Notes: generated by a model from the sequence alone, not told the origin. Positions 38,109 through 57,017 are shown, counted from the stretch's first letter. The stretch: DNA of 57,017 nt from an uncultured Chlamydiae bacterium (GCA_963830365.1 CAWHMU010000020.1:1-57017), one strand, 5' to 3'. Program-made: numbers and translations.

Positions 38109-38211
38109 AGGCTTGGGGTCTGGCTTGTGATTTGTGATTTGAAAGCCCACCAGGGCCTTTAGGAAGGTCAACTCCTTTCAAATCGCAAATCGCAAGCCTG
38201 ACCCCAAGCCT
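38109..38211 (+). repeat. Dispersed GGGGTC-type REP hairpin
   Basis: Same arms as 26362 and 34823, different loop. Confidence 0.9.
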
Positions 38212-38272
38212 TTCGCCGAAACTTGCCCTATGGCTTTTTATATACTGCAGCCGACAATATTATTCGATAAAA

Positions 38273-38426
38273 TTAGTATCCGCTCACGGGGTCGGAAATT
38301 TAGACGTCAGGCCTTCAGCCTGAGATTTTTGTGTGTTTTACCTAGGGCCTCGCCCTAGGTGGAATATATAAAGAACCCAGGCTGAAGGCTTGATGTATGG
38401 TTTTCGACCCCGTGAACGGATACTAA
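38273..38426. repeat. Palindromic element (another family)
   Basis: TTAGTATCCG.TCACGGGGTCG.AAA..CCTTCAGCCTG / CAGGCTGAAGG..TTTTCGACCCCGTGAACGGATACTAA. Confidence 0.8.
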
Positions 38427-38469
38427 AATTAATCTTTAGCCGGTCAGCATAATTTTACAAGGATGCCGT

Positions 38470-38760
38470 ATGTGGAAAATGTCGTCTGAAGGGGTTGTTA
38501 TTCCGCTAAAGGTAACACCCAAAGCCAGCTTTAATGAAATTGTAGGCTGGGAAAATAATGAGTTGAAAATCCGCATAGCCGCACAGCCTGAAAAAAGTAA
38601 TGCTAATGATGAACTCATCGCCTTTCTGTCTAAGGAGCTAAAGCTAAGCAAACGGCAAATCAAGCTGATTAGCGGCTTTACCAGCCGTCACAAGCGTATT
38701 TGCCTCATCGATGTTGATCCTCAAACAATTTGGTTTCTAAAGAATGATACCGCCATCTAA
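38470..38760 (+). CDS. DUF167/YggU family protein
   Basis: LKVTPKAS.NEI...LKIRIAAQPEKSNANDELIAFLSK...ISGFTSRHK. Confidence 0.88.
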   Translation: MWKMSSEGVVIPLKVTPKASFNEIVGWENNELKIRIAAQPEKSNANDELIAFLSKELKLSKRQIKLISGFTSRHKRICLIDVDPQTIWFLKNDTAI

Positions 38761-38910
38761 TGAGAATTTGACATATGGGATTGCGCGAAAGCTCCCGCGG
38801 TTGTGTGATCGTAAGTCACCCAATATTAGCAATATGGGGTGACTTATGATCATATAACCCCGGGGCTTTGGCGCGTCCAATATGTCAAATTCTCATTAGA
38901 TCATGGTATA
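38747..38910. repeat. TATACC-type palindromic element, overlapping the stop of the DUF167 gene
   Basis: Same central CACCCAATATT..AATATGGGGTG architecture as 22165-22331. Confidence 0.8.
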
Positions 38911-42723: not shown

Positions 42724-42797
42724 GGGGCAATAGCTCAGTCGGTTAGAGCAGCGGACTCATAACCCGCTGGTCCTTGGTTCAAGTCCAAGTTGCCCCA
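42724..42797 (+). tRNA. tRNA with CAT anticodon (Ile2-like or elongator Met); island insertion site
   Basis: GGGGCAATAGCTCAGTCGGTTAGAGCAGCGGACTCATAACCCGCTGGTCCTTGGTTCAAGTCCAAGTTGCCCCA. Confidence 0.93.
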
Positions 42798-42840
42798 TCC
42801 TTTTCCTCCAAAGCTTCCTAGATCGGCCACATGCATCAGA

Positions 42841-43539
42841 CTCAAGAATGGGGTCTGAACCCATGCGGGCTCCACGAATTCATTCCAATAGTGTGTTTTG
42901 CCAACGGCGTGTCTTTCAAAACTCTTGTTGTCTAAAGTTACTATAAATATTTTAGTTTAATCTTTAGAATCCGCAAAAGTCGTCATTTAACCTGAAAATA
43001 GAAATCAAGAATGAGACTCGAGAATGGGGTCTGGCTTGTGATTTGTGATTTGGTTCCTGCCAAATCGCAAATCGCAAGCCTGAACCCATTCGGGCCTCAC
43101 GAATTCATTTCCAATAGTGTGTTTTGGCAACGGCGTATCTTTAAAAATTCTTGGTGTCCAATTTCACTGTAAATATTTTAGTTTAATCTTTAGAATCCGC
43201 AAAAGTCATCATTTAACCTGAAAATAGAAATCAAGAATGAGACTCGAGAATGGGGTCTGGCTTGTGATTTGTGATTTGGTTCCTGCCAAATCGCAAATCA
43301 CAAGCCTGAACTCATGCGAGCTCCACGAATTCATTTCCAATAGTGTGTTTTGGCAACGGCGTATCTTTAAAAATTCTTGGTGTCCAATTTCACTGTAAAT
43401 ATTTTCGTTTAATCTTTAGAATCCGCAAAAGTCGTCATTTAACCTGAAAATAGAAATCAAGAATGAGACTCGAGAATGGGGTCTGGCTTGTGATTTGTGA
43501 TTTGGTTCCTGCCAAATCGCAAATCGCCAGCCTGAACCC
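42841..43539 (+). repeat. Three tandem ~226-bp units, each ending in a GGGGTC REP hairpin
   Basis: GAGACTCGAGAATGGGGTCTGGC at 43013, 43239, 43465. Confidence 0.92.
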
Positions 43540-43575
43540 ATGCGGGCCCCAAAAGTTTACTTAAAAGGAATATTT

Positions 43576-44538
43576 ATGGCTAGAAAACCCCGTCTTCACA
43601 CTCCAGGAGGCTTTTATCATGTGATGCTGCGCGGAAATAATGGCCAGCCAATTTTCTTTTCAGAAACAGACCGGTGCCGATTATCGCTGCTCATTCAGGA
43701 AGTTTGTGAACGCTTCAACTTTCGCATCCATGGCTTCTGCTTTATGAAGAATCATATCCATTTGATTCTCCAGGTGTCTGAAAACCATATTTCATTAGCC
43801 ATGCAAAATCTATCCTCACGCTATACACGGTACATCAACAGAAAGGAAAAGCGCATCGGCCATCTTTTTCAAGGACGATTCAAATCCATCCTGATAGAGG
43901 ATAGCGATTATTTGCTTCAGTTGATTCGTTATGTTCATCTTAATCCTGTGCGTGCCGGGATTGTCGCAAAGCCCGAATATTACCTTTGGAGTGGACATCG
44001 CGCATACCTAGGAGTAGAAACAATATTATGGCTAACGCAAGACTGGATACTAGCCAAGTTTGATGACTCTGAGTCTACTGCAAGGCAGTGTTATGAAAAA
44101 TATGTGAATGAAGAAAGTCTAGCTGAAATACCCTTAAATAAATCTAAGAGGGTATCGTATCAAGATCAAAGTCTTAGCAATGATAATTTCGTTGGACGCG
44201 TGCTTGCGGAAAATCATCAACTCTTACAAAATCCCGTGGTATGTTCTCTTGAGGATATTTTAGAAGTCGTTTGTCAGCAGCTTGGCAAACCTGTCGTTAT
44301 TGTCAAATCGCCGGGTAAGGAAAGAGTCGGCTCTAAGGCTAGGGCATTAGTGTCATATTTTATTAGACGGACGCCGCACCTTACTTTGAAAGAATTTGCG
44401 GATTTTTCGGGCAGAGATGTGAGTAGTTTAAGCAAGCTAGCAAGGGATATTGAAGTGCGAAATGAAACAGAAGAGGGGACTGCTTTGTTAATTTCAGAGC
44501 TAGCTATCAAGTTCAAGCATTGCGCCTTAGCGCCTTGA
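43576..44538 (+). CDS. REP-associated tyrosine transposase (RAYT; IS200/IS605-superfamily Y1 HUH) with C-terminal DnaA_C-like HTH
   Basis: MARKPR..YHVMLRGNN, NHIHL (HUH), HLFQGRFKS, RYVHLNPVRAG (Tyr); AAAGGA RBS. Confidence 0.9.
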   Translation: MARKPRLHTPGGFYHVMLRGNNGQPIFFSETDRCRLSLLIQEVCERFNFRIHGFCFMKNHIHLILQVSENHISLAMQNLSSRYTRYINRKEKRIGHLFQGRFKSILIEDSDYLLQLIRYVHLNPVRAGIVAKPEYYLWSGHRAYLGVETILWLTQDWILAKFDDSESTARQCYEKYVNEESLAEIPLNKSKRVSYQDQSLSNDNFVGRVLAENHQLLQNPVVCSLEDILEVVCQQLGKPVVIVKSPGKERVGSKARALVSYFIRRTPHLTLKEFADFSGRDVSSLSKLARDIEVRNETEEGTALLISELAIKFKHCALAP

Positions 44539-44637
44539 TAGATGTTTGAAGTGTTGTTCGGGTGTAAAGTTCCAGTCTCTCCTCATTCTGGCCATCGGAT
44601 AGGCGGACTAGCCTTTTTATCTACAGTACTTTAGGTG

Positions 44638-45462
44638 TCAAATCTCCAAATGCCAAGCCTGACCCTTTGTGTTGGCGCTGGCATTGATAGAGCCAATGGG
44701 ACGATAAAGGAGATTCCAGTAAAGGTGTGGTGTTTTCCCGTCACTATGGTATAGTGTTGTGGCTAATTCAGAAACTGGTTGAAAATATGTCGCAGTCTTC
44801 ATTCCAATAGGTTTGAAGAGGTTTTGTTCAACATATTCTTCAAAACTCTTCCCTGTTATCTTTTCCACGACATAAGCTGCAACAGCGGGTCCGGAATTAC
44901 AATAGGCCATGCGCGTACCAGGGCGCCAACGAGAGATTCTAGAGCTGTGATCATAATCAAGCGCATCGAAAGAAGACATTGTTGAGGGGTTCTTGGCAAA
45001 CTCGCGCAAATGCATGTCATCCCAGCCAGTAGTGTTTTCTAGTAAATGGACAATACGCACTGGATCGCTGGCTTCCCACTTATTGTCAAACCACACCTCC
45101 GGCGCTAATTTTTGCAAAGGATCTTCAAGTGAGAGCTTGCCTTCATTGACGAGCATAAGGACTGCGAGAGAAACAAATCCCTTAGATACCGATCCTATGC
45201 GGAATAGTGTTGTTGCAGTTGCAGCTCGATCATTGACTAAATCAGCTTTGCCTAGACCAGCTATCCACTCGGGAGTATCTCGATTCACAATCGCAATGGA
45301 CATGCCTGGTACATGCATACTCTCAAGTACATTTTCAAGTTGCGTTTGCAATTCTTCGATAGACTCAGCAGGCTTTTTATTTTCAGTGATGTTTTGGGAA
45401 GAGCATGAGATTTCAAGAAAAGCTAAAATAATTATTGAGATCATTGACCTTAGACTTATCAT
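44638..45462 (-). pseudogene. Beta-lactamase-family serine hydrolase (probable lipoprotein), C-terminally truncated at a REP end
   Basis: FRIGSVSK (SxxK), YCN; ends just after GSINASAN, and the last residues KGQAWHLEI are encoded by the REP. Confidence 0.8.
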
Positions 45463-45474
45463 ATTGAATATTTC

Positions 45475-46119
45475 TTATTTATCAGTTGAAGTGCTGAGTT
45501 TTTCGAGAATGAAATCAACCCTTTCTTTAACGGGTATTTTTGGGATAAGAACAGTCTCATAGCCGAAATTCTTATACTTTATAAGAAGCTCCTCGAACTC
45601 CTTTTTTGCAGATTCAAAATTATGCTTTCGCTCTGTATCACCTTTAAAAATCTCTTTCCAAGGAGGAACGAGGAATATTAGACGATTGTATCTAAAGTTT
45701 TTAGCTGCATGCTGAAAATATTCCGGCTGAGATGGGTCTAATTGAACGGCATCAATAATGCCTCGATCAAAAAAAATAAATTTTTGTGATTCTTTCTGAG
45801 AATTAAACTGAAATAAATAACGAGATAAAGCAAGTTCCAAAAATTTATTAAGATTTATCCAGGGTAAACCATTTCCGCCGATTGCTGTTTGTTCTTTTAC
45901 GATTTGGCGTCCTGGCTCAAGAACGACAGAATAGCCTCGATTTACAAGCTCAGATAAAAGAGTAGATTTCCCTCCACCCGAGCATCCAGAAATAACCACA
46001 TAATTGTTTTTGATAATTGGAAAACTAGTCTCGTTTAAATAATTATCCTCTAAATTTTCCGCAGAAATATTTGGATTCATAATCAAGCATCCTAATAAAA
46101 TTAATATAACTATTTTCAT
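45475..46119 (-). CDS. AAA_28-type P-loop ATPase/kinase
   Basis: VVISGCSGGGKSTL, EPGRQI, FFDRGIIDA, PPWKEIF..DTERK. Confidence 0.85.
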   Translation of the reverse strand: MKIVILILLGCLIMNPNISAENLEDNYLNETSFPIIKNNYVVISGCSGGGKSTLLSELVNRGYSVVLEPGRQIVKEQTAIGGNGLPWINLNKFLELALSRYLFQFNSQKESQKFIFFDRGIIDAVQLDPSQPEYFQHAAKNFRYNRLIFLVPPWKEIFKGDTERKHNFESAKKEFEELLIKYKNFGYETVLIPKIPVKERVDFILEKLSTSTDK

Positions 46120-46979
46120 CTAAACCTCTTTAGGTCTAAAACACTTGTAAAGAACCTCCTTAAATCACTCACAACTCTTTCTAAAGAGATAGGTTCATGC
46201 GAAATATCCCTTAAAAAGGCATTCCATTTATCTTTTTTGATTTGATTGTCATAGAAAGATTCTAAGAAAGCAACGGGAGTAGCTTCAGCAGAGGTACCAC
46301 GATTTTTGAGAACTTGTTGAATAATTCCCTTTAGCTCTTGAAGGTCAAAATCAAATTGTTGAATCAACAACCATATGTCATAAAAATCTTTCATACGCGT
46401 ATTAGCAAATCCTAAGCGAATGATAGATTCAAACTTTTCAGCTATGGATGTTTGAGGCGTATAGCCATTAAGTTCGGGTGCAGGAAAATCTAAAAGCGTC
46501 GGATATTTTACCTTTGCAGGATGAGGAAGAATGGTATCACTAAAGCCAAAGTCTATTCGCATGGGAAGCTTAGCTGTAAATAAATGTGCTGAAAACGCTG
46601 CACTGATTCCATGATACTCAGCTTCTAATTGTGCTTCCGCTAATTTTAATGTTTCTGAAGCAAATTTCAGACCATCAGGAATAACTTCTATGGCGCACAC
46701 TTCATTAATAATTTTCTGTAGATTTGCTATGGAATTAGAAGTCTTAGCGAGGAGATCAATGTCTACGGTGGCTCTATGGCTCATAGGATCCCAGACCATT
46801 AGCATCAAACCACCCTTTAGATAAAAATTACTCTGATGTGAAGAAACGCTTAAACGATACAAAAAGCGTTCCATCGCATAGTATTTCAAAACTTCTTGAA
46901 CGGGTCTCTTTCTCTGCCTTGCTACATTCTTTAAGCGGCTATAAATCGATTCCTCGAGGTTCTTTTTAGTTTTCTCCAT
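46116..46979 (-). CDS. abiEii: AbiEii/AbiGii nucleotidyltransferase toxin (type IV TA)
   Basis: YAMERFLYRL, LKGG, RATVDIDL, IAEKF, NTRMKDFYD. Confidence 0.92.
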   Translation of the reverse strand: MEKTKKNLEESIYSRLKNVARQRKRPVQEVLKYYAMERFLYRLSVSSHQSNFYLKGGLMLMVWDPMSHRATVDIDLLAKTSNSIANLQKIINEVCAIEVIPDGLKFASETLKLAEAQLEAEYHGISAAFSAHLFTAKLPMRIDFGFSDTILPHPAKVKYPTLLDFPAPELNGYTPQTSIAEKFESIIRLGFANTRMKDFYDIWLLIQQFDFDLQELKGIIQQVLKNRGTSAEATPVAFLESFYDNQIKKDKWNAFLRDISHEPISLERVVSDLRRFFTSVLDLKRFR

Positions 46980-46984
46980 TGCCG

Positions 46985-47596
46985 TTAGCTCACTATTGTT
47001 TCCATAATAGGTTGAAGGATTTTTTCAACGCGATTTATCTTTGCATACTCATATAATTTATCAATTTGCGTTCCTTTGCGTTGCCAGTACATTTTCAGTG
47101 CTTCAATGACAACATCCATACCGATTTTGTTACGGAATTTAATGCAATCGGCTAAAGTTTTTTCAATATTGAAAATTTTAACTGGATAACCTCCAATCAA
47201 TATAGTTTCAACACCAGCAGTATAAACCTTTTCTGAGTAATGAAAGTAGCGAATCGGTGGATAATCCAATCTTGATTGTCTTGATTTTGTTGGAATGGCG
47301 ATATAAACAAAGTGCGGAATCTGTGTCGTGATTTCGTGATAGGCCAAGGCTGAAATCAAGCATATGACGGCTTGAGGGATTTTCTTGGAGACAAGGACAA
47401 GATCGGGCTCAGAGAAATCAGGAACTTCAACTAATCTATAGACTCCTTTAGCTAACTGCTCTAACAATCCTTCCTCTCGCAACTGATAAATAATGCGAGG
47501 GTGTATACCCAAGCGCATAGCTTCGGCTGTCCGGAGCAAACCTTGGTTTTTCTTGAAGAGTTTAATGGCTTTTTGTTTTGCAGTCATGGATAACAA
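46985..47596 (-). CDS. abiEi: AbiEi antitoxin/transcriptional regulator (type IV TA)
   Basis: wHTH LEQLAKGVYRL, ICLISALAYHEITTQIP, EKTLADC.KFRNKIG. Confidence 0.92.
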   Translation of the reverse strand: MLSMTAKQKAIKLFKKNQGLLRTAEAMRLGIHPRIIYQLREEGLLEQLAKGVYRLVEVPDFSEPDLVLVSKKIPQAVICLISALAYHEITTQIPHFVYIAIPTKSRQSRLDYPPIRYFHYSEKVYTAGVETILIGGYPVKIFNIEKTLADCIKFRNKIGMDVVIEALKMYWQRKGTQIDKLYEYAKINRVEKILQPIMETIVS

Positions 47597-47825
47597 CGTC
47601 GGTAAATATCATCTTTTTACTACATTATTATCCATATGAGTTTTTTGGTCAATCTAAATTCCTCGCTGCCTCTCATGTAACAAGGTCCATTACGCAAATA
47701 TTACGCACTCGGCAGGAAAAGACTAGAACAAAATTACGCAGACCAGCACAATCAGTAGTTACTCAAACCATTGAATGTAGTGTGCCTATGTATTCTCATT
47801 TATGCTGGTTTGTGGAAGGTCAGGC

Positions 47826-47906
47826 GACTCATAACCCGCTGGTCCTTGGTTCAAGTCCAAGTTGCCCCATCCTTTTCCCTCCAAAGCTTCCTATGTCGGC
47901 CACATG
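47826..47906 (+). repeat. Duplicate of tRNA(CAT) 3' half plus trailer (att-like direct repeat)
   Basis: GACTCATAACCCGCTGGTCCTTGGTTCAAGTCCAAGTTGCCCCATCCTTTTCC matches 42754 onward. Confidence 0.95.
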
Positions 47907-48518
47907 AACCCATTCGGGCCCCACGAATTTATTTCCAATAGTGTGTTTTGCCAACGGCGTGTCTTTAAAATTCTTGTTGTCCAATTTTACTATAAATATT
48001 TTAGTTTAATCTTTAGAATCCGCAGCAGTCATCATTTAACCTGAAAATAGAAATCAAGCCTGAACCCATGCGGGCCCCACGAATTCATTTCCAATAGTGT
48101 GTTTTGCCAGCGGCGTGTCTTTCAAAACTCTTGTTGTCCAATTTTACTATAAATATTTTAGTTTAATCTTTAGAATCCGCAGCAGTCATCATTTAACCTG
48201 AAAATAGAAATCAAGAATGAGACTCGAGAATGGGGTCAGGCTGGTGATTTGTGATTTGGTTCCTGCCAAATCGCAAATCGCCAGCCTGAACCCATGCGGG
48301 CCCCACGAATTCATTTCCCATGGTGCATTTTGCCAACGGCGTGTCTTTCAAAACTCTTGTTGTCCAATTTCACTATAAATATTTTAGTTTAATTTTTAGA
48401 ATCCGCAAAAGTCGTCACGGCATCTGCGAATTGACTCCATATTGAGACTCGAGAATGGGGTCTGGCTTGTGATTTGTGATTTGGTTCCTGCCAAATCGCA
48501 AATCGCCAGCCTGAACCC
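47905..48518 (+). repeat. Second array of three units of the ~226-bp family (first unit lacks the hairpin)
   Basis: GAACCCAT.CGGGCCCCACGAATT at 47906, 48062, 48288; hairpins at 48232 and 48457. Confidence 0.9.
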
Positions 48519-48554
48519 ATGCGGGCCGCAAAAGTTTACTTAAAAGGAATGTTT

Positions 48555-49517
48555 ATGGCTAGAAAACCCCGTCTCCACGCTCCAGGAGGCTTTTATCACG
48601 TGATGCTGCGCGGAAATAACGGCCAGCCAATTTTCTTTTCAGAAACAGACCGGTGTCGATTATCGCTGCTCATTCAGGAAGTATGTGAACGCTTCAATTT
48701 TCGCATCCATGGCTTCTGCTTTATGAAGAATCATATCCATTTGATTCTCCAGGTGTCTGAAAATCATATTTCTTCTGCCATGCAAAATCTATCCTCACGC
48801 TATACGCGTTATATCAACAGAAAGGAAAAGCGCATCGGCCATCTTTTTCAAGGACGATTCAAATCCATCCTGATAGAGGATAGCGATTACTTGCTTCAGT
48901 TGATTCGTTATGTTCATCTAAACCCTGTGCGGGCGGGGATTGTCGCAAAGCCCGAGCATTACCCTTGGAGTGGGCATCGCGCGTACCTAGGAGCTGAAAC
49001 GATATTATGGCTAACGCAAGACTGGATACTAGCCAAGTTTGATGACTCAGAGTTTACTGCAAGGCGGTGTTACGAAAAATATGTGAATGAAGAAAGTCTA
49101 GCTGAAATACCCTTGAATAGATCTAAGAGGGTATCGCATCAAGATCAAAGTCTTAACAATGATGATTTCGTTGGACGCGTGCTTGCGGAAAATCATCAGC
49201 GCCTAGAGAATCCCGTGGTATGTTCTCTCGAGGATATTTTAGAAGTCGTTTGTCAGCAGCTTGACAAACCTGTCGTTATTGTTAAATCGCCGGGTAAGGA
49301 AAGAGTTAGCTCTAAGGCTAGGGCATTAGTGTCATATTTTATTAAGCGGATGCCGCACCTTACTTTGAAAGAATTTGCGGATTTTTCGGGTAGAGATGTG
49401 AGTAGTTTAAGCAAGCTAGCGAGGGATATGGAAGTGCGGAATGAAACAGAAGAGGGGACTGCTTTGTTAATTTCAGAGCTAGCGATCAAGCTCAAGCATT
49501 GCGCCTTAGCGCCTTAA
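48555..49517 (+). CDS. Second RAYT transposase, close paralog of 43576..44538
   Basis: Same length and motifs; roughly 20 amino-acid differences counted by eye. Confidence 0.9.
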   Translation: MARKPRLHAPGGFYHVMLRGNNGQPIFFSETDRCRLSLLIQEVCERFNFRIHGFCFMKNHIHLILQVSENHISSAMQNLSSRYTRYINRKEKRIGHLFQGRFKSILIEDSDYLLQLIRYVHLNPVRAGIVAKPEHYPWSGHRAYLGAETILWLTQDWILAKFDDSEFTARRCYEKYVNEESLAEIPLNRSKRVSHQDQSLNNDDFVGRVLAENHQRLENPVVCSLEDILEVVCQQLDKPVVIVKSPGKERVSSKARALVSYFIKRMPHLTLKEFADFSGRDVSSLSKLARDMEVRNETEEGTALLISELAIKLKHCALAP

Positions 49518-49911
49518 TAGATGTTTGAGGTGTTGTTCGGGTGTGAAATTCAAGTTTCTCCTCATTCGGGCCATCCCATCGAGTAGGCGATCCAGACTAT
49601 TTATCTACAGTACTTTAAGTGTCAAATCTCCAAATGCCAAGCCTGACCCCTTTTGCAAAAAAATGGCGAAGTTGTTGTGCTCCTTAGCGGGAATCCTGAT
49701 GATACAGGAGATGTGTTAAATCTTTTAGATTATTTATATAAAGAAACTTTGGATACTTTTTTAAAAATCTTTAAAAGTCCTTTAAAGAACAAATTTAAAG
49801 AATTCAAAAAAATCTGAAATGGCTCAAAGAACTATGTTTAGCTAATCTTCTTAAAAAAGTTATAAAAGGAATAATTCGTCGTGATAAAAAAACTATTGTT
49901 ACTTGTGTTTT

Positions 49912-50340
49912 TTAAGATATCTTGAGTGATGCATTAAAGCGAACCTCCTGGATTACGTCGGCTTCTCTGCTCCAATCTCCGGCTTGTCCCCATTTCACAA
50001 GTCTGCCATCACAGAAATAAAGCCAGTAAGAGTTTATTTCACCTTCAGAAAGCAGTATGGGTGCACATAGACCCAATGTGAGGGCCGTTAACGCTAGTTC
50101 ACCGCCAAACTGTCCACTAGTTTTTCCTTGGTCAACACGATACTCCCAGACTTCAATGATCTGACCATAGTTATTTTTGATTGAACCACGAACTACAGAT
50201 GGAGAACCTAGTTTGTTCAAGACTTGAGACTTATCCATGTCTACAGATACTGTTATAAGCTTATCTGAATTTATGCTTCGAACGCATCCAAATGAAAATG
50301 AAAGAAGTATGCAGGTAAGAAGTAATGTTGTGAGTTTCAT
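49912..50340 (-). CDS. Putative lipoprotein (SmpA/OmlA-like fold)
   Basis: Lipobox-like FSFGC; MDKSQVLNKLGSP...EVWEY...YFCDGRLVKWG. Confidence 0.65.
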   Translation of the reverse strand: MKLTTLLLTCILLSFSFGCVRSINSDKLITVSVDMDKSQVLNKLGSPSVVRGSIKNNYGQIIEVWEYRVDQGKTSGQFGGELALTALTLGLCAPILLSEGEINSYWLYFCDGRLVKWGQAGDWSREADVIQEVRFNASLKIS

Positions 50341-50460
50341 TGCACCCCCCCCAATTATTATAGAAAACTGTCAATAAGTGTAGTAGATTAAGTATTTAAA
50401 CACAAGATAGATAGAATATTTGAAGGATGGAGTGTTCCTAAGCTAGATCCAATAAAGGCA

Positions 50461-50606
50461 AGAAAAAGGGGCAGGCTTGGCATTTGAGAAAAGGGGTCAA
50501 AAAGGGGTCAAAAAAGGGGTCAGGCTTGGCATTTGGAGATTTTACGCTTAAACACTTTGCTATCAATATTCTAAGTGCCAAATCCCCAAATGCCAAGCCT
50601 GACCCC
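50461..50606. repeat. Complete GGGGTC REP doublet (50517-50606) preceded by stuttered partial ends
   Basis: GGGGTCAGGCTTGGCATTTGG.GATTT...AAATCCCCAAATGCCAAGCCTGACCCC; upstream AAAAGGGGTC x3. Confidence 0.9.
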
Positions 50607-50843
50607 TTGTGCTAGGAGAACTCCAGAATCTACAAGGGGGCGTAAATTCTTCAACTCAACAAAAGGCTTTTGGAATCCTTTGCCATCGCTATCGCCTTCC
50701 AATCGTTTAAGACGCTTTTTCCAGCCGGACAGAGTGTTCATGGGAATTTGTTGTTCTTGGCACCAAACGCACGCGCTTTTTCCGCTGTCTCTCCATTCGT
50801 GGACTAATTTTTTCCAGTTGGGATTCGGTTTTCCTTTGGTCAT
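50571..50843 (-). pseudogene. IS66-family accessory TnpA-like fragment truncated at the REP
   Basis: WKKLVHEWRDSGKSACVWCQEQQI...LSGWKKRL..FVEL; upstream ATTGACGCTTAC (reverse complement GTAAGCGTC) resembles an IS66 terminus at ~50922. Confidence 0.7.
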
Positions 50844-50934
50844 ATCTCTCCTTAAAATGAAATCTAAGGGAAGATTACCAGTTTGGTTGAATTGTAAAAA
50901 GATGGCTAAAATTGACGCTTACAATTCTTTCGCT

Positions 50935-51159
50935 CTACCCATAAAAAATCTGGTACGGTTGACTTGAAAAATCGACTTCATCGGCCATCCGCATCCCATT
51001 ATCAGGGAGGAAGAGCACTACTTCAGCATCAATTTCAAGTCTTGAAAGATCAAAACCTGAAGAGGCATCGTAGATGACTCTAGCAATTCGTCTTTTAGTA
51101 GATTTGGCATAAAAAAAACTCTCTAATTTTTCTAAACGCTTTTTTTGAGATGCTTTCAT
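50935..51159 (-). CDS. Small hypothetical protein translationally coupled to the DUF5681 gene
   Basis: ATGA overlap at 51156-51159. Confidence 0.55.
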   Translation of the reverse strand: MKASQKKRLEKLESFFYAKSTKRRIARVIYDASSGFDLSRLEIDAEVVLFLPDNGMRMADEVDFSSQPYQIFYG

Positions 51160-51608
51160 TTTAGGTTTCCTATCTGGACAAAAGACTCAAGAGTTTGTAG
51201 CCTGCATTCGTGCTGATTTGCTTCAAGGATTTTTGAGTGTAAATCTATTGTTCTAGACAGCGCCTCACCTTCGGATGGCGAAATTTCGCCTTTGCAGATG
51301 GCTGATATAATTAACATCGATGCAGATAAAACATCTTCATATGTTTTAATTTCAGGGAGATTCAGCCGGATTAAGCGGTCTTTACGAGGAGGCAAAAATC
51401 TTTCCAAAACCATTTTTGCAGCTTGCATGTTGCCATTTATAGCTTCTTCTTCGATTCGTCTACAGATTCTATCTAATGACCCTTCAAGCAGTTTTTCTGC
51501 AGCTAAAGTCGATTTATTCCTCGCGCCTTTGGGTTTACCTCTAGGATTTCCGGATTGTCCTCTTTTGAATTTGTTACTTCCCTGTATTTTTCCTGTATTT
51601 TCAGGCAT
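51156..51608 (-). CDS. DUF5681-domain protein (phage/island-associated)
   Basis: FKRGQSGNPRGKPKGARNK signature. Confidence 0.8.
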   Translation of the reverse strand: MPENTGKIQGSNKFKRGQSGNPRGKPKGARNKSTLAAEKLLEGSLDRICRRIEEEAINGNMQAAKMVLERFLPPRKDRLIRLNLPEIKTYEDVLSASMLIISAICKGEISPSEGEALSRTIDLHSKILEANQHECRLQTLESFVQIGNLK

Positions 51609-51775
51609 TGCATTCTCACGGTATTGAAGATCAATATTAAGTCTTTATTCTAGCAGATTTTTTAATCATGTGAATAGGAAAAGCGATTTCACATTTACAG
51701 GTATATAGCTAAATTTATTATTATCTAATGGTCAATAAATAGGCTTTATTTTTCCTCATCTAAAAAATGAAAAAC

Positions 51776-51804
51776 TTGCGTGGATATAGCAAGTGCTATA
51801 TCCT
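51776..51804 (+). promoter_or_regulatory. Promoter with overlapping palindromic operator upstream of the XRE gene
   Basis: TTGCGT-N17-TATCCT; GGATATAGCA-AG-TGCTATATCC at 51782-51803. Confidence 0.65.
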
Positions 51805-51837
51805 ATTCACATATCACACATAACCTACTGAATTGGA

Positions 51838-52062
51838 GTGACTATGAACCACGAGCAGGACTGTCGACCAGAACAGATAAAAGAAATACGAAAGAGGCTT
51901 AACTTAAGCCAAGAAGAGTTTGCCAAAAAACTTGGAGTTAGTTTTACCAGCGTTAACCGCTGGGAAAATGGTCAAACTAAACCCTCCAAGCTGGCTCGAC
52001 GACAAATTTTGAATCTTTTTGAACAACTAAACGAATATGAAAAATTAGTAAACAGTGTATAA
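51838..52062 (+). CDS. XRE-family HTH regulator
   Basis: IKEIRKRLNLSQEEFAKKLGVSFTSVNRWENGQTKPS. Confidence 0.9.
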   Translation: MTMNHEQDCRPEQIKEIRKRLNLSQEEFAKKLGVSFTSVNRWENGQTKPSKLARRQILNLFEQLNEYEKLVNSV

Positions 52063-52166
52063 CAAGTTTTTTATGAATTATTTAAAATAAAAGCAAATCA
52101 TAACAATTCACTTAAACTTATTATTGAAGTTAACTGAATTAACTGCCAGAGAGAAGAAAGTCTTTT

Positions 52167-54533
52167 ATGAATGAAGCTGACACATGTAGGCAATATATCC
52201 TTCCAAAAATTGTAGCTGCTGGATGGGATAACTTGCCCCATTCAATTACCGAGCAACGAACATTTACTGATGGTCGAATTTTTGTAGCTGGCAATAAAGT
52301 TAAGAGGGGTAAACAAAAGCGTGCCGATTATTTGCTACGTTATACTAAAGATTTCCCAATCGCAGTTGTTGAGGCTAAAGCTGCACATAAAAATCCAGGA
52401 GCCGGCTTACAACAAGCAAAAGAGTACGCAGAAATTTTAGGATTAAAGTTTGCTTATTCAACTAACGGTGTCAATATTATTGAGTTTGATTATATAACCG
52501 GAAAAGAAAGCTTGCTTACAGACCTTCCAAGTCCTAGTGAGTTATGGAAAAGACTGAAAGGCGATCAACATATTTCCGACGATCATGCCGATATAATTTT
52601 AAGTAGCTTTTTTAATCAACCTGGTAAACAGCCCCGCTATTATCAAGAAATTGCTATAAACAAAATTGTTCAAACAATTGTTCAAGGAAAAAAACGCGTT
52701 CTTGTCACAATGGCTACCGGCACTGGAAAGACAGTGGTTTCATTTCAAGTTTGCTGGAAGCTTTGGACTAGCAGATGGAATATAAAAGGAGAATTTAGAA
52801 AACCACGAATTCTTTTTTTAGCTGATCGAAGCATTCTTGTAGATGACCCTAAAGATAAAACATTCACACCCTTTGGCGATGCACGTTACAAATTGGAAAA
52901 TTGCTGTATCTCAAAAGGACGTGAAATGTACTTTGCAACTTATCAAGCGATTGCAGAAGATGAAAGAAGGCAAGGGCTTTACAGAGAGTTTGCTGCTGAC
53001 TTTTTTGATCTTATTATTATTGACGAATGCCATAGAGGATCGGCAAGTAAGGAGAGTAGCTGGCGAGAAATACTAGAATATTTTCATCACGCTGTACAAC
53101 TAGGAATGACAGCTACTCCCCTCAGAGATGATAATCGTGATACTTACACCTATTTTGGCAATCCAATATACACTTACAGTTTACGGCAGGGTATAGACGA
53201 TGGATTTTTAGCACCATATTGTGTTCATCGTATAATAACCACTGCCGATGCAGCAGGTTGGAGACCTTCATTTAAAGAGGTTGATCGATATGGAAGGGAG
53301 ATTCCCGATGGTGAATATCAAACAAAGGATTTTGAGCGTTTGATAGCCCTACGTTCACGGACTAAAGCTATTGCAAAGCACTTAACGGATCACCTAAAAA
53401 AAACGGATCGGTTTTCTAAGACCATTGTTTTTTGTGTAGATCAGGAACATGCCGAAGAAATGCGCCGAGCTATCAATAACCTTAATCAGGATCTTACAGC
53501 ACAATACCCAAACTATGTTTGTCGCATTACATCTGACGAAGGTGACATTGGACGTGGACATCTCAGTCGTTTTCAAGAACTCGAAACTATGGAGCCTGTA
53601 ATCCTAACGACTTCAAAACTCCTGACCACAGGAGTTGATGCACCAATGGTTAAAAATGTGGCTCTAGCGCGGGTTGTTGGTTCTATGACGGAATTTAAAC
53701 AAATAATAGGCAGAGGAACGCGTGTACGAGATGATTACGGAAAATATTTTTTTAACATTCTTGATTATACAGGTTCAGCAACAAGCCATTTTGCTGATCC
53801 TGAATTTGACGGAGAGCCTTCACTGATTAAAGAAGAGAATATAGACGATAACGGCAACCTAATCGATGAAGAAATCTGCGTAAAGAATTTAACAGATGAT
53901 GAATGGAACGACATTATAAACGGTGATCCCCCTCCAATTTCCGACACTCAAGTTGAAAAACCTAAAAAATTTTATGTGGATGGTGGTTCAATAGACGTCA
54001 TAGCAGACCTTGTATATGAACTTAATGCAAATGGAAAACAGCTTAATGTGGTTAAGTATACTGACTATACGGCCAATACTATTCGTAGTCTTTACCCAAA
54101 TCCTTCTGTTTTCCGTGAACAATGGATGAATTCTGCTGAGCGGGAAGATATTATTCAAAAACTCAAGGACCAAGGAATTGATTTTGAAAAATTAGCTGAA
54201 CAAACCCTACAGCCAGATGCTGACCCATTTGACTTGCTTTGCCATGTAGCTTTTAATGCGCCACTTCGAACAAGAAAAGAACGAGCTGAGCGTGTTAAAG
54301 CGAATAAACAAGATTTTTTTGAGAAATATAGCTATGCAGCACGGGAAATTTTAGAATACCTGTTAAAAAAATACACCGATCATGGTCTGGATCAGTTTAG
54401 AATACCAGAAGCATTAAAGGTTCCTCCAATTTCTAATTATGGAAACATTGGCGAAATAATTAAATTATTTGGCAGTGCTGATGATTTACGAAATGCAATT
54501 AACGAATTACAAAATCAACTATACGTGGCTTAA
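52167..54533 (+). CDS. hsdR: Type I restriction enzyme R subunit (EcoEI/EcoAI-like short form)
   Basis: MNEADT, RADY..VEAK nuclease motif, MATGTGKT, DECHRG, MTATP, QIIGRGTR. Confidence 0.93.
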   Translation: MNEADTCRQYILPKIVAAGWDNLPHSITEQRTFTDGRIFVAGNKVKRGKQKRADYLLRYTKDFPIAVVEAKAAHKNPGAGLQQAKEYAEILGLKFAYSTNGVNIIEFDYITGKESLLTDLPSPSELWKRLKGDQHISDDHADIILSSFFNQPGKQPRYYQEIAINKIVQTIVQGKKRVLVTMATGTGKTVVSFQVCWKLWTSRWNIKGEFRKPRILFLADRSILVDDPKDKTFTPFGDARYKLENCCISKGREMYFATYQAIAEDERRQGLYREFAADFFDLIIIDECHRGSASKESSWREILEYFHHAVQLGMTATPLRDDNRDTYTYFGNPIYTYSLRQGIDDGFLAPYCVHRIITTADAAGWRPSFKEVDRYGREIPDGEYQTKDFERLIALRSRTKAIAKHLTDHLKKTDRFSKTIVFCVDQEHAEEMRRAINNLNQDLTAQYPNYVCRITSDEGDIGRGHLSRFQELETMEPVILTTSKLLTTGVDAPMVKNVALARVVGSMTEFKQIIGRGTRVRDDYGKYFFNILDYTGSATSHFADPEFDGEPSLIKEENIDDNGNLIDEEICVKNLTDDEWNDIINGDPPPISDTQVEKPKKFYVDGGSIDVIADLVYELNANGKQLNVVKYTDYTANTIRSLYPNPSVFREQWMNSAEREDIIQKLKDQGIDFEKLAEQTLQPDADPFDLLCHVAFNAPLRTRKERAERVKANKQDFFEKYSYAAREILEYLLKKYTDHGLDQFRIPEALKVPPISNYGNIGEIIKLFGSADDLRNAINELQNQLYVA

Positions 54534-54556
54534 ATTCGAAATAACAAGGATTTGAA

Positions 54557-56119
54557 ATGATTACAAAAAATGTAATAATGAAAAAACAGAATTTAAGGAC
54601 AATAGAACAGCTCGAATCTCTAATTGATAACGCAAGAAAAATAATGCGTAAAGACAAAGGGTTAAATGGGGATCTCGATCGTCTTCCTATGCTTACTTGG
54701 ATAATGTTTTTAAAGTTTCTTGATGATATGGAATTTATCCGTGAGCAAGAGGCTCAACTTTGTGGTGAAAAATACCGTCCTACTATTGATAATCCATATA
54801 GATGGCGTGATTGGGCAGCTCAAAAAGATGGCATAACAGGAGATGAATTAATAACTTTTATTAATCAAGAAGAAGTTTTGTTACCTGGTGGAAGAAAGGG
54901 AAAGGGATTGTTTGCATACTTGAAATCACTTGAAGGTGATGGTAAAAGCCGCAAAGATGTTATTGCAATTATTTTTAAAGGAACGGTCAATCGCATGATT
55001 AATGGATATCTACTTAGAGAGGTTATTAATAAGGTAGATGATATCCATTTTAGTTCATCCGAAGAAACACATACACTGGGGATGCTCTACGAAAAAATGC
55101 TAACTGAAATGCGAGATGCAGCTGGTGACAGTGGGGAATTTTATACACCAAGACCGGTTGTACAGTTTATGGTTGCTACGACTAATCCAAAACTTGGAGA
55201 TAGCGTTCTGGACCCTGCTTGTGGTACAGGCGGTTTTTTATCTGAAGCATTTATTCACCTTCAAAAACAGTGTAAGACAGTTAATGATCAAAAACGACTG
55301 CAAGAACAATCAATATTCGGGCAAGAAGCAAAACCTTTACCTTATCTTCTAGGTGAAATGAACTTGTTACTGCATGGACTGGAATTTCCAAATATTACTT
55401 ACGGAAATACACTTGCTCAAAAGATAACTGAAATAGGTGACAATGAAAGAGTAGATTTGATTCTTACAAATCCACCTTTTGGTGGAGAGGAAGAAACGGG
55501 GATTAAATCAAACTTTCCCAGTGACTTACAAACTTCAGAAACAGCATTGCTTTTCTTGCAATACATTATGCGAAAGTTAAAGCGATTAGAAAAAAACAAA
55601 GGAGTTCCTGGTCGGGCTGCGGTTGTTGTTCCTAATGGAATTCTATTTGGCGATGGCGTATGTGCCCGAATTAAAGAACAACTCCTAAGAGATTTTAATC
55701 TACATACAATTGTAAGACTTCCAGAAGGCGTTTTTGCACCCTATACCGATATACCGACAAATATTATTTTTTTTGATAAGGGAGGTCCTACAAAAGAAAC
55801 ATGGTTTTATGAGCAACCAATTGCAGAAATTCATAGAACTAAAAAGAATCCAAGATACTCTAAGACAAAGCCCATGCAATATTCCGAATTTGAAGAATGT
55901 CTCACTTGGTGGAGTAATCGTAAAGACAATGATTTTGCATGGAAAGTATCAGCAGATGTTATTAGTTTAAATAATTATAATTTAGATATTAAGAATCCTA
56001 ATTCTATAGAATCTCTTGTCCACCTACCGCCAACAGTTCTTTTAGATAACATTCTTGAAAAGGAACAAATGATCATTAATCTAATGAACGAGTTAAAATC
56101 TGAATTGAGGAGTAGATAG
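54557..56119 (+). CDS. hsdM: Type I R-M N6-adenine methyltransferase M subunit
   Basis: GEFYTPR, LDPACGTGGFL, TNPPFGG, LPEGVFAPYT. Confidence 0.95.
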   Translation: MITKNVIMKKQNLRTIEQLESLIDNARKIMRKDKGLNGDLDRLPMLTWIMFLKFLDDMEFIREQEAQLCGEKYRPTIDNPYRWRDWAAQKDGITGDELITFINQEEVLLPGGRKGKGLFAYLKSLEGDGKSRKDVIAIIFKGTVNRMINGYLLREVINKVDDIHFSSSEETHTLGMLYEKMLTEMRDAAGDSGEFYTPRPVVQFMVATTNPKLGDSVLDPACGTGGFLSEAFIHLQKQCKTVNDQKRLQEQSIFGQEAKPLPYLLGEMNLLLHGLEFPNITYGNTLAQKITEIGDNERVDLILTNPPFGGEEETGIKSNFPSDLQTSETALLFLQYIMRKLKRLEKNKGVPGRAAVVVPNGILFGDGVCARIKEQLLRDFNLHTIVRLPEGVFAPYTDIPTNIIFFDKGGPTKETWFYEQPIAEIHRTKKNPRYSKTKPMQYSEFEECLTWWSNRKDNDFAWKVSADVISLNNYNLDIKNPNSIESLVHLPPTVLLDNILEKEQMIINLMNELKSELRSR

Positions 56120-56703
56120 TGAAAAACAATTGGCCGAGAGTTAAACTCAATAAAATCCTTCAAGAGCGTAAAGAATCCCCTAACCCCATTCATATAGCCT
56201 CCGGAGACATAAAAATTATTTCAAAAATAGGTTTTGAAAGTGGTAAAATTGAGTTTCGCCAAAACTCCTCAACACATACAAAAATGATTTCTATCCATCC
56301 TGGAGATTTAGTTATTTCAGGAATTAATGCTTCAAAAGGCGCAATAGCAATAATGGATAGTTCATTTAAAGCTTCAGCAACCATACATTATAGTTCATAT
56401 GCAGTTAATGAAAATCTTGCAGATAGATTTTTTCTATGGCTCTATTTTCGAAGTGCTTATTTTCAAGAAATATTAACTAGTCAACTTCGAAATGGAATAA
56501 AAACAGAGCTTAAAGCTAATAGATTTCTTCAAGTTGAAGCCCCTCTCCCCCCTATTAAGGATCAGCATAAAATAATAAAAAAAATAACATCTCATGAACA
56601 AGCACTCCAAGCTTCATTTAGAATTTCAGAAAAGCAGATTGATGAATTGGAGGTTCTGAAAAGATCTTTAATAATGTATTTGATAGCCTACTGCCTACGG
56701 TGA
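56119..56703 (+). CDS. hsdS: Type I R-M specificity subunit, only one TRD present (probably truncated by the junction at ~56690)
   Basis: [29 protein letters not shown]; overlaps the hsdM stop. Confidence 0.75.
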
Positions 56704-57017
56704 TGCTCTGGCTGATGTCACCGGTCAGCAGGTTGGGGATGCGGTCGATCACGCTCGACCGGGCAGATTTCATCCTGAACTCGCCAGCTTGTTGAGCGGC
56801 CAAGGCCTTCTGGTGCGAAGCCAGCGCAAATGCGTCCTGGTCTTCGCGGCTGACCTTCCACTGGTCGGCGACCTTCTCGGCCGTCAAACCCATGCCGTAG
56901 GCGATGCCGATGTTGTCGTCGGTGGTGAAGACCAACGGGTCGAACGAGGGCTTGTTACCGCCCATGGGCACCAGGCTCATGGACTCGGCGCCGCCGGCAA
57001 TCATCACGTCGGCTTCG
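56692..57017 (-). other. Internal fragment of a GC-rich acetyl-CoA C-acyltransferase (thiolase) gene, apparently from a different organism
   Basis: [42 protein letters not shown]; abrupt GC and codon shift. Confidence 0.8.

Follow-up and report, generated by a model that had tools for sequence, protein, structure and literature searches.

The window analysed here is a contig of 57,017 nt from an uncultured Chlamydiae bacterium (GCA_963830365.1, CAWHMU010000020.1; contig C20 of the genome called G000 below, an 82% complete draft assembly). From position 42724 onwards it carries two tandem modules behind a tRNA(CAT) gene. Each module begins with a tRNA 3' half, a repeat array and a gene for a transposase of the REP-associated tyrosine transposase (RAYT) type, and continues beyond a terminal repeat arm into cargo. 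The features are as follows, with att denoting attachment-site copies.

42724-42797, plus strand: tRNA(CAT), an integration hot spot (tRNA call; sole match of an Rfam scan of the window)
42798-42836, plus strand: tRNA trailer ("tail") of 39 bp, recurring behind both att copies
42837-43551, plus strand: array 1, three 226-bp units (150-bp spacer and ~68-bp A-type inverted-repeat hairpin with GGGGTC ends)
43576-44538, plus strand: TIRYT/RAYT transposase copy 1 (320 codons; NHIH, FQ and YVHLNP motifs; Bac_DnaA_C-like tail)
44640-44671, plus strand: terminal arm 1, B-type; the element ends 6 nt past GACCC, at junction 44671/44672
44672-45462, minus strand: beta-lactamase-family serine hydrolase gene, 3' end cut by the terminal arm (Pfam profile 7-212 of 329)
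45475-46119, minus strand: AAA_28 ATPase gene
46116-47596, minus strand: AbiEi and AbiEii, type IV toxin-antitoxin pair
47688-47825, plus strand: integrase attR arm containing TTACGCA repeats; arms ahead of att copies in islands of genomes G010 and G036 are homologous
47826-47869, plus strand: att core, the tRNA 3' 44 bp, identical to the tRNA
47870-48530, plus strand: second trailer copy, then array 2 with three spacers and two hairpins
48555-49517, plus strand: TIRYT/RAYT transposase copy 2 (profile matches, alignment to copy 1)
49624-49655, plus strand: terminal B-type arm 2 (junction 49655/49656)
49656-49817, plus strand: headless PF18928 gene, last 53 codons of ~256 aa (86% identical to P0122 residues 205-254)
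49912-50340, minus strand: lipoprotein-like open reading frame (ORF), 142 aa, no Pfam or NCBIfam match
50463-50611, no strand: free B-type hairpin whose left side has end stutters of 11 nt and whose right end, 6 nt past GACCC, cuts IS66
50612-50922, minus strand: IS66 stub (end and tnpA); five copies elsewhere in the genome continue past 50612
50935-51608, minus strand: pair of a 74-aa gene and a DUF5681 gene
51838-56703, plus strand: XRE regulator, EcoAI-type hsdR, hsdM and half-length hsdS
56690-57017, minus strand: high-GC thiolase fragment, outside the element

A preliminary description of this DNA had reported a head of about 1.9 kb in two diverged copies, and this was borne out. The 3' 44 bp of the tRNA recur unchanged at 47826-47869, again followed by trailer, array, transposase gene and arm, and beyond this 44-bp core the match continues for ~37 bp of the trailer (96% identity across 81 bp). 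The trailer copies are not identical to each other. The array configurations differ as well: head 1 has three full 226-bp units, and head 2 has three spacers and two full hairpins, its first hairpin being deleted. The two transposase genes agree at 907 of 963 nt (94%), with 19 evenly spread amino acid changes, a dS of 0.19 and a dN of 0.027 (dN/dS 0.14). The heads are therefore not an assembly duplicate, and both lineages have been under purifying selection. The array hairpin has a folding energy of -31.8 kcal/mol (DNA parameters), and the hairpins overall reach about -32 to -34 kcal/mol. The 150-bp spacer has no match elsewhere in the G000 genome or in the relatives' loci. By elimination, the tRNA is likely tRNA-Ile2, because initiator-type (fMet) and elongator-type Met tRNAs are both found on contig C19.

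Both transposases are intact and pass NCBIfam NF047646 and Pfam Y1_Tnp. Judged by motifs, tail and GGGGTC[AT]G-ended inverted repeats, they are assigned to TnpA-Y1 (HUH) subclass 2.1, that is, TIRYT. NHIH, HLFQGRF and YVHLNP in both copies correspond to the motifs NHxH, FQ/W and Y[IV]HLNP given for this subclass in Table 1 of PMC6006769, a paper covered in part. The DnaA_C-like tail (PF08299, residues 238-298) scores E 4e-5, under the curated cut-off, and most close homologues carry a similar one. GGGGTCTG/GGGGTCAG arms lie upstream of the gene and an arm in inverted orientation on its downstream side, which fits inverted repeats of the form GGGG[AT][CG]A[CG]; the A-type arms, which make up the array and the dispersed hairpins, are one base off this consensus, and the B/C types flank the genes. 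Across the G000 genome, 187 arm matches fall into about 122 clusters (some chance matches included), and there are nine Y1_Tnp matches. Three other identities were rejected. A canonical REPtron (RAYT groups 2/3) is out, as the arm flanks have no conserved GTAG foot. An insertion sequence (IS) of the IS200/IS605 type does not fit a protein of 320 aa instead of ~150 aa, with Y---NP instead of Y---Q and 26 bits for NF033573 against a cut-off of 55. IS91/ISCR membership fails because Pfam gives Y1_Tnp only and the ends are inverted repeats, not oriIS/terIS. A protein search returned no homologue between 59% identity and the window's own copy. The preliminary description had started from the premise that RAYTs are single-copy genes, which is weak for this subclass: Table 1 of PMC6006769 equates it with Bertels RAYT group 1, which, in the part of PMC5581495 covered, duplicates more often than any other group of true RAYTs (6.3% recent duplicates). 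As further observations on the repeats and transposases of this genome, other abundant repeat families are present (top 16-mers with 131 and 96 copies), and there are several additional Y1 transposases, including a two-domain one at C45:169640-170425.

The cargo boundaries are tied to the terminal repeat. Identity between the heads had been described as ending exactly at the repeat end; the repeat does set the boundary with base precision, but 6 nt past GACCC and not at GACCC. All three cargo or IS junctions of the window lie at this offset, each cutting a gene or IS. At the first of them, a hydrolase homologue on a contig from an independent run (X7) aligns with 44672-44861 and is then unlike the window for 200 nt. 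An offset of 5-6 nt also fits the junctions of two tandem copies, one on contig C14 of G000 and one in genome G168, and the cut AbiEii gene of locus L098. In the latter (L098:1200-3140), a tRNA is followed by stuttered repeats and an AbiEii gene cut at the repeat end; the homologue used for comparison is only 67% alike and the offset less exact. Microhomology at the junctions is at most 1 nt where checked, and no target motif is evident on the cargo side.

The two tandem copies end at the arm as well. On C14, the copy comprises 392 bp from the tRNA-Tyr 3' end to the arm (383/394 identical); in G168, it comprises 857 bp from inside the transposase gene to the arm (99% identical). Junctions and tandems have one footprint in common: on one and the same strand, the arm's outer end is connected to a position lying farther back. 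Terminal stutters of 11-13 nt were found at 12 of 237 arms, compared to 0.37 expected, and depend on the arm type (8/21 B/C-type arms vs. 1/90 A-type arms). The complete C14 locus (G000:C14:29794-31660) reads tRNA-Tyr, partial island arm, A hairpin and B arm as the 392-bp tandem, short cargo and tRNA-Tyr att. The G168 locus (G168:C1:1464700-1505200) holds 17 of the 18 repeat-pattern matches of a 4-Mb genome within 40 kb, inside an island array at the same tRNA as in the window.

The cargo itself appears to have arrived by integrase. The 138 bp ahead of the second att align with arms ahead of att copies in G010 and G036, AbiE likewise lies ahead of an att in G010, and the DUF5681 pair is 73%/49% identical to a pair inside an integrase island of genome G002, there ahead of a type I restriction-modification (R-M) system. 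For these reasons, the transposase did not replace the integrase in cargo delivery. As reported before, no integrase ORF was found between 42797 and 57017. Module 1 had been called complete; it is bracketed by att-like repeats, with the tRNA 3' duplication and distal arm sites of an integrase island, but the integrase and left arm expected next to the tRNA are absent and the first gene is cut. The preliminary description had proposed searching the genome for an integrase acting in trans. G000 has three PF00589 matches, all on other contigs: C36 holds an island-type tyrosine integrase, which lies at a tRNA-Thr and has another arm motif, C5 holds a fragment and C33 one further match. No large serine recombinase was found in the genome, and a cognate integrase for the module 1 arm was not found in the 82% complete assembly. 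The C36 locus (G000:C36:108895-123583) is a conventional integrase island with a type I R-M system at tRNA-Thr(CGT).

Extra 3' copies of the window's tRNA are common (61 genomes searched). We tabulated 80 tRNA/att sites from 35 genomes, the loci being chosen for having such matches and not blind. Ten sites were left out, namely three of G000, three from a search pattern in which the repeat was required and four whose downstream DNA was too short. At 42 of the 70 scoreable sites, a gene or gene fragment for a tyrosine integrase or serine recombinase lies within 1.5 kb; the identity of the proteins used as queries was confirmed. Four sites have a terminal repeat no more than 120 bp away, and none of these four has a recombinase. 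We did not rely on the corresponding Fisher test (p 0.024), in which att2 was counted among the negatives (25 instead of 24) and kin were treated as independent.

The sequence behind the att copies sets this locus apart. Standard integration leaves the host trailer only behind the last att. In G000, the same trailer follows the tRNA, the second att and a third att copy on contig C42 (G000:C42:7204-7290), where it ends at a repeat end and a different arm type lies ahead, although the right arms ahead of the att copies differ. Trailer and head behind every att are an anomaly, as standard integration cannot produce such a pattern. The C42 att, on a contig separate from C20, is flanked by NrtR/NUDIX and kinase/glycosyltransferase genes. 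A second genus, represented by genome G019, has its own trailer after the tRNA and after three att copies with three different right arms. Its heads run trailer, A hairpin, spacer, terminal arm, stutter, cargo; three of them end in a stuttered arm before cargo, and they contain neither integrase nor transposase gene, the G019 transposase being on another contig. Among 74 distinct trailers, those of G000 and G019 are each other's best non-self match (19/30), and an S10 peptidase gene lies upstream of the tRNA in both genomes; from these two facts, the trailer looks host-derived.

Beyond these two genomes, the transposase or its repeat lies 20-55 nt from the tRNA end in G168, L098 and L102 as well as in G000 and G019, three of the five having been found by the repeat-demanding pattern. 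On the metagenome contig L102 (L102:1-1215), an oppositely oriented transposase unit, 44% identical to that of the window, follows the same tRNA 3' end at a distance of 25 nt. An order-wide search for tRNA end plus repeat matched 3 of 401 genomes, and G034 and G049 proved not to be true repeats on inspection; its gap of 15-45 nt excluded G000 itself, and G019 was outside that sample. The metagenome pattern search gave five matches, three of them G019's own contigs, and viral contigs gave none.

Taken from these sequence comparisons, our preferred reading, which we hold to be somewhat probable, is that the modules are right-hand halves of ordinary integrase islands that lost left arm and integrase on one-ended joining by the TIRYT transposase, with tRNA 3' end, trailer and array recopied ahead of the cargo that was left. 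A tyrosine integrase inserts an island at the tRNA and pushes host trailer and head behind the new att, a step backed by homology. The transposase may then nick single-stranded DNA 6 nt beyond the terminal arm's GACCC, on its outer side, and, in the manner of one-ended IS91/ISCR transposition, join the nicked end to a site x of low specificity that lies within the island, farther to the left along the same path. The product would be a tandem copy or a circle of x-cargo-attR-trailer-head. It could be resolved to tRNA-head followed by x-cargo-att-head through recombination at the tRNA 3' half or head, or if the island's own integrase excised the intact island in the normal way, and repetition of the cycle would yield an array of modules. 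Precedents exist for the parts: TnpA-REP cleaves and strand-transfers single-stranded DNA, and its gene capture has been likened to IS91/ISCR (PMC3333891, in part), and a circle-plus-recombination model has been put forward for ISCR1 (PMC7707992, in part). The 6% divergence of heads 1 and 2 under purifying selection suggests a sister-lineage origin of one head, or an old event. The alternative considered earlier, integrase-mobilised islands whose integrase end was removed by RAYT activity, comes closer to this, but alone leaves the same host trailer behind every att unexplained.

Several observations weigh against this reading. Of the 35 tabulated genomes, only 2 have the repeated head. With neither recombinase nor repeat at 24 of the 70 sites, integrases are also lost where these repeats are absent, and in G004 and G168 repeats are present and an integrase still follows the tRNA directly. 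On C14, a normal island arm and no recopied head comes after the att copy, and with the C42 and G019 heads on separate contigs, the order among heads is not fixed. The trailer match between G000 and G019 is short, A/T-rich and modest. A fresh in-place duplication would predict identical heads, whereas a dS of 0.19 is observed. Contrary to the association expected earlier, none of ten transposase homologue loci from other genomes (4-19 kb each) holds a tRNA or att copy; one 46% homologue locus, from a Chlamydiae metagenome-assembled genome, likewise has no tRNA, and the two other close paralogues in G000 are separated from a tRNA or tmRNA by 7 and 26 kb. Our literature search found no biochemistry for subclass 2.1. 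None of the public sequencing runs searched contains the locus (best share of words 0.07), so the tandem is unspanned; run-derived contigs cover cargo 1 homologues only and no head, missing cover not being evidence.

Four other explanations were weighed. Rather unlikely in our estimate, though a serious rival, is a distinct integrase island that has trailer, array and transposase as its left end and integrated repeatedly at the tRNA, with adjacent deletions that start from the terminal repeat and take away the rest of this island and the left part of the one that follows. Such an island would account for diverged heads under purifying selection and for gene-cutting junctions at a fixed offset; the island left arms in C14 and G018 are indeed cut off at the terminal repeat, and the G168 transposase unit lies inside an island at the window's tRNA. 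However, all 42 sites next to a recombinase lack this trailer, a separate island of this sort would be required for G019, one that has a homologous trailer but lacks the transposase gene, and the tandem copies ending at the arm stay unexplained. Improbable is an origin free of transposase catalysis, in which deletions are favoured by long hairpins and strains exchange heads through RecA. The stability of the hairpins and the 0.1-1.9 kb of homology offered by the heads would allow this, and inter-strain exchange would explain the divergence. Breaks constant at 6 nt outside one arm type, the arm-type specificity of the stutters and the near absence of junction microhomology speak against it.

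We regard as very improbable the model proposed earlier, in which it is the transposase, and not an integrase, that places cargo at the tRNA, as a RAYT/REP-driven platform. The five loci with the unit or repeat close to the tRNA end, the L102 gene included, are what it would predict, but three of them come from the repeat-demanding pattern, the right junction of module 1 has integrase arm sites, and the ten homologue loci count against it as well. Scarcely credible, finally, is a false join of sequences from two strains within the tRNA/trailer repeat that they share: an apparently chimeric contig end, the draft state of the assembly and the lack of reads across the locus are in its favour, but joins of arm, att and trailer lie mid-contig on C42 and on G019 contigs C80 and C85, the trailer copies differ, and a run (X1) yielded a contig with arm and att (8 differences in 188 nt).

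The two cargoes are unrelated, as first described, with AbiEi/AbiEii, AAA_28 and serine hydrolase in module 1 and DUF5681, XRE and type I hsdR/M/S in module 2. The idea that the locus stockpiles defence genes is borne out only in part, with AbiE and type I R-M here; the cargo of the other heads is mostly metabolic or of unknown function, with one TOTE-type gene. Near 56690, the GC content rises from 36% to 63% and hsdS stops with one specificity domain. The thiolase end of the contig is most likely a chimeric join, and the right end of module 2 is not on the contig. Apart from this locus, several unrelated long inverted repeats crowd around a DUF167 gene beside a tRNA-Pro at 38109-38909 of the window, and tRNA-Pro(GGG) occurs twice in G000 with near-identical downstream DNA (C32:2989 and C48:1600).

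Known systems resemble the locus in part. TIRYT/TIRtron elements (PMC3733652, PMC6006769, PMC5581495) have the same motifs, a DnaA_C-like tail, GGGGWSAS-type inverted repeats, dispersed repeat dimers and few copies per genome; the parts of these papers covered describe no activity, fixed-offset junctions or link to tRNA islands. In the window, by contrast, the upstream repeat is amplified to a 226-bp array and two copies are 94% identical. Complex class 1 integrons with ISCR1, and one-ended transposition of IS91, share an HUH enzyme, captured DNA that begins downstream of the transposase gene, and tandem units with duplicated transposase and shared homology block, for which a circle-and-recombination model exists (PMC7707992, in the part covered). 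The window differs from ISCR1/IS91 in its IS200-like Y1 core instead of IS91 Y2/ISCR, in ends that are inverted-repeat hairpins, in a homology block of tRNA 3' half and trailer, and in captured DNA that is half an integrase island. One-ended mobilisation resembling IS91/ISCR is proposed here by analogy, from footprints in the sequence (fixed-offset junctions and tandem copies).

The TnpA-REP/BIME system of E. coli (PMC3333891) is similar in local tandem amplification of repeats, proposed rolling-circle-like copying and capture of flanking gene fragments. However, the window has no GTAG-type REP, and the E. coli REPtrons appear, from the passages covered, not to move as a unit; these passages do not describe kilobase island halves or integrase loss. 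A preprint (10.1101/2020.03.09.984088, covered in part) links TnpA-REP to gene diversification, a causal claim since withdrawn. Tandem tyrosine-integrase islands at tRNAs, known from the relatives and from a chlamydial example (PMC548262, in part), share site, att core, right arm and AbiE, type I R-M and DUF5681 cargo; in the window, left arm and integrase are replaced by host trailer and repeat head, behind every att. Searches for literature on integrase loss or tRNA-end recopying linked to TIRYT/RAYT, and for literature joining TnpA-REP, genomic island and integrase, found none, with subscription papers outside their reach; TIRYT/TIRtron turned up in just two works. The parts are all of known kinds, and their combination appears undescribed.

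More tentatively, and again by sequence comparison, subclass 2.1 transposases behind a hot-spot tRNA may be active one-ended capture enzymes that turn incoming islands into integrase-free cassettes (cargo-att-trailer-head), held in the chromosome and exchangeable among strains through homology; the locus would then be a device by which the host tames islands and gathers cargo, a tRNA equivalent of the ISCR1 complex integron. Subclass 2.1 is the largest uncharacterised class of REP-type transposases, present in 14.9% of strains according to the part of PMC6006769 covered, and has no assigned activity in the papers found; the locus offers natural substrates and a base-precise prediction, namely a cut 6 nt outside GACCC and one-ended transfer. 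If the preferred reading is true, it would give one way in which the integrase-less island remnants often seen at tRNAs can arise. With the integrase gone, the cargo would therefore be fixed, and a possible benefit to the host would be to keep AbiE and type I restriction cargo while excision is disabled.

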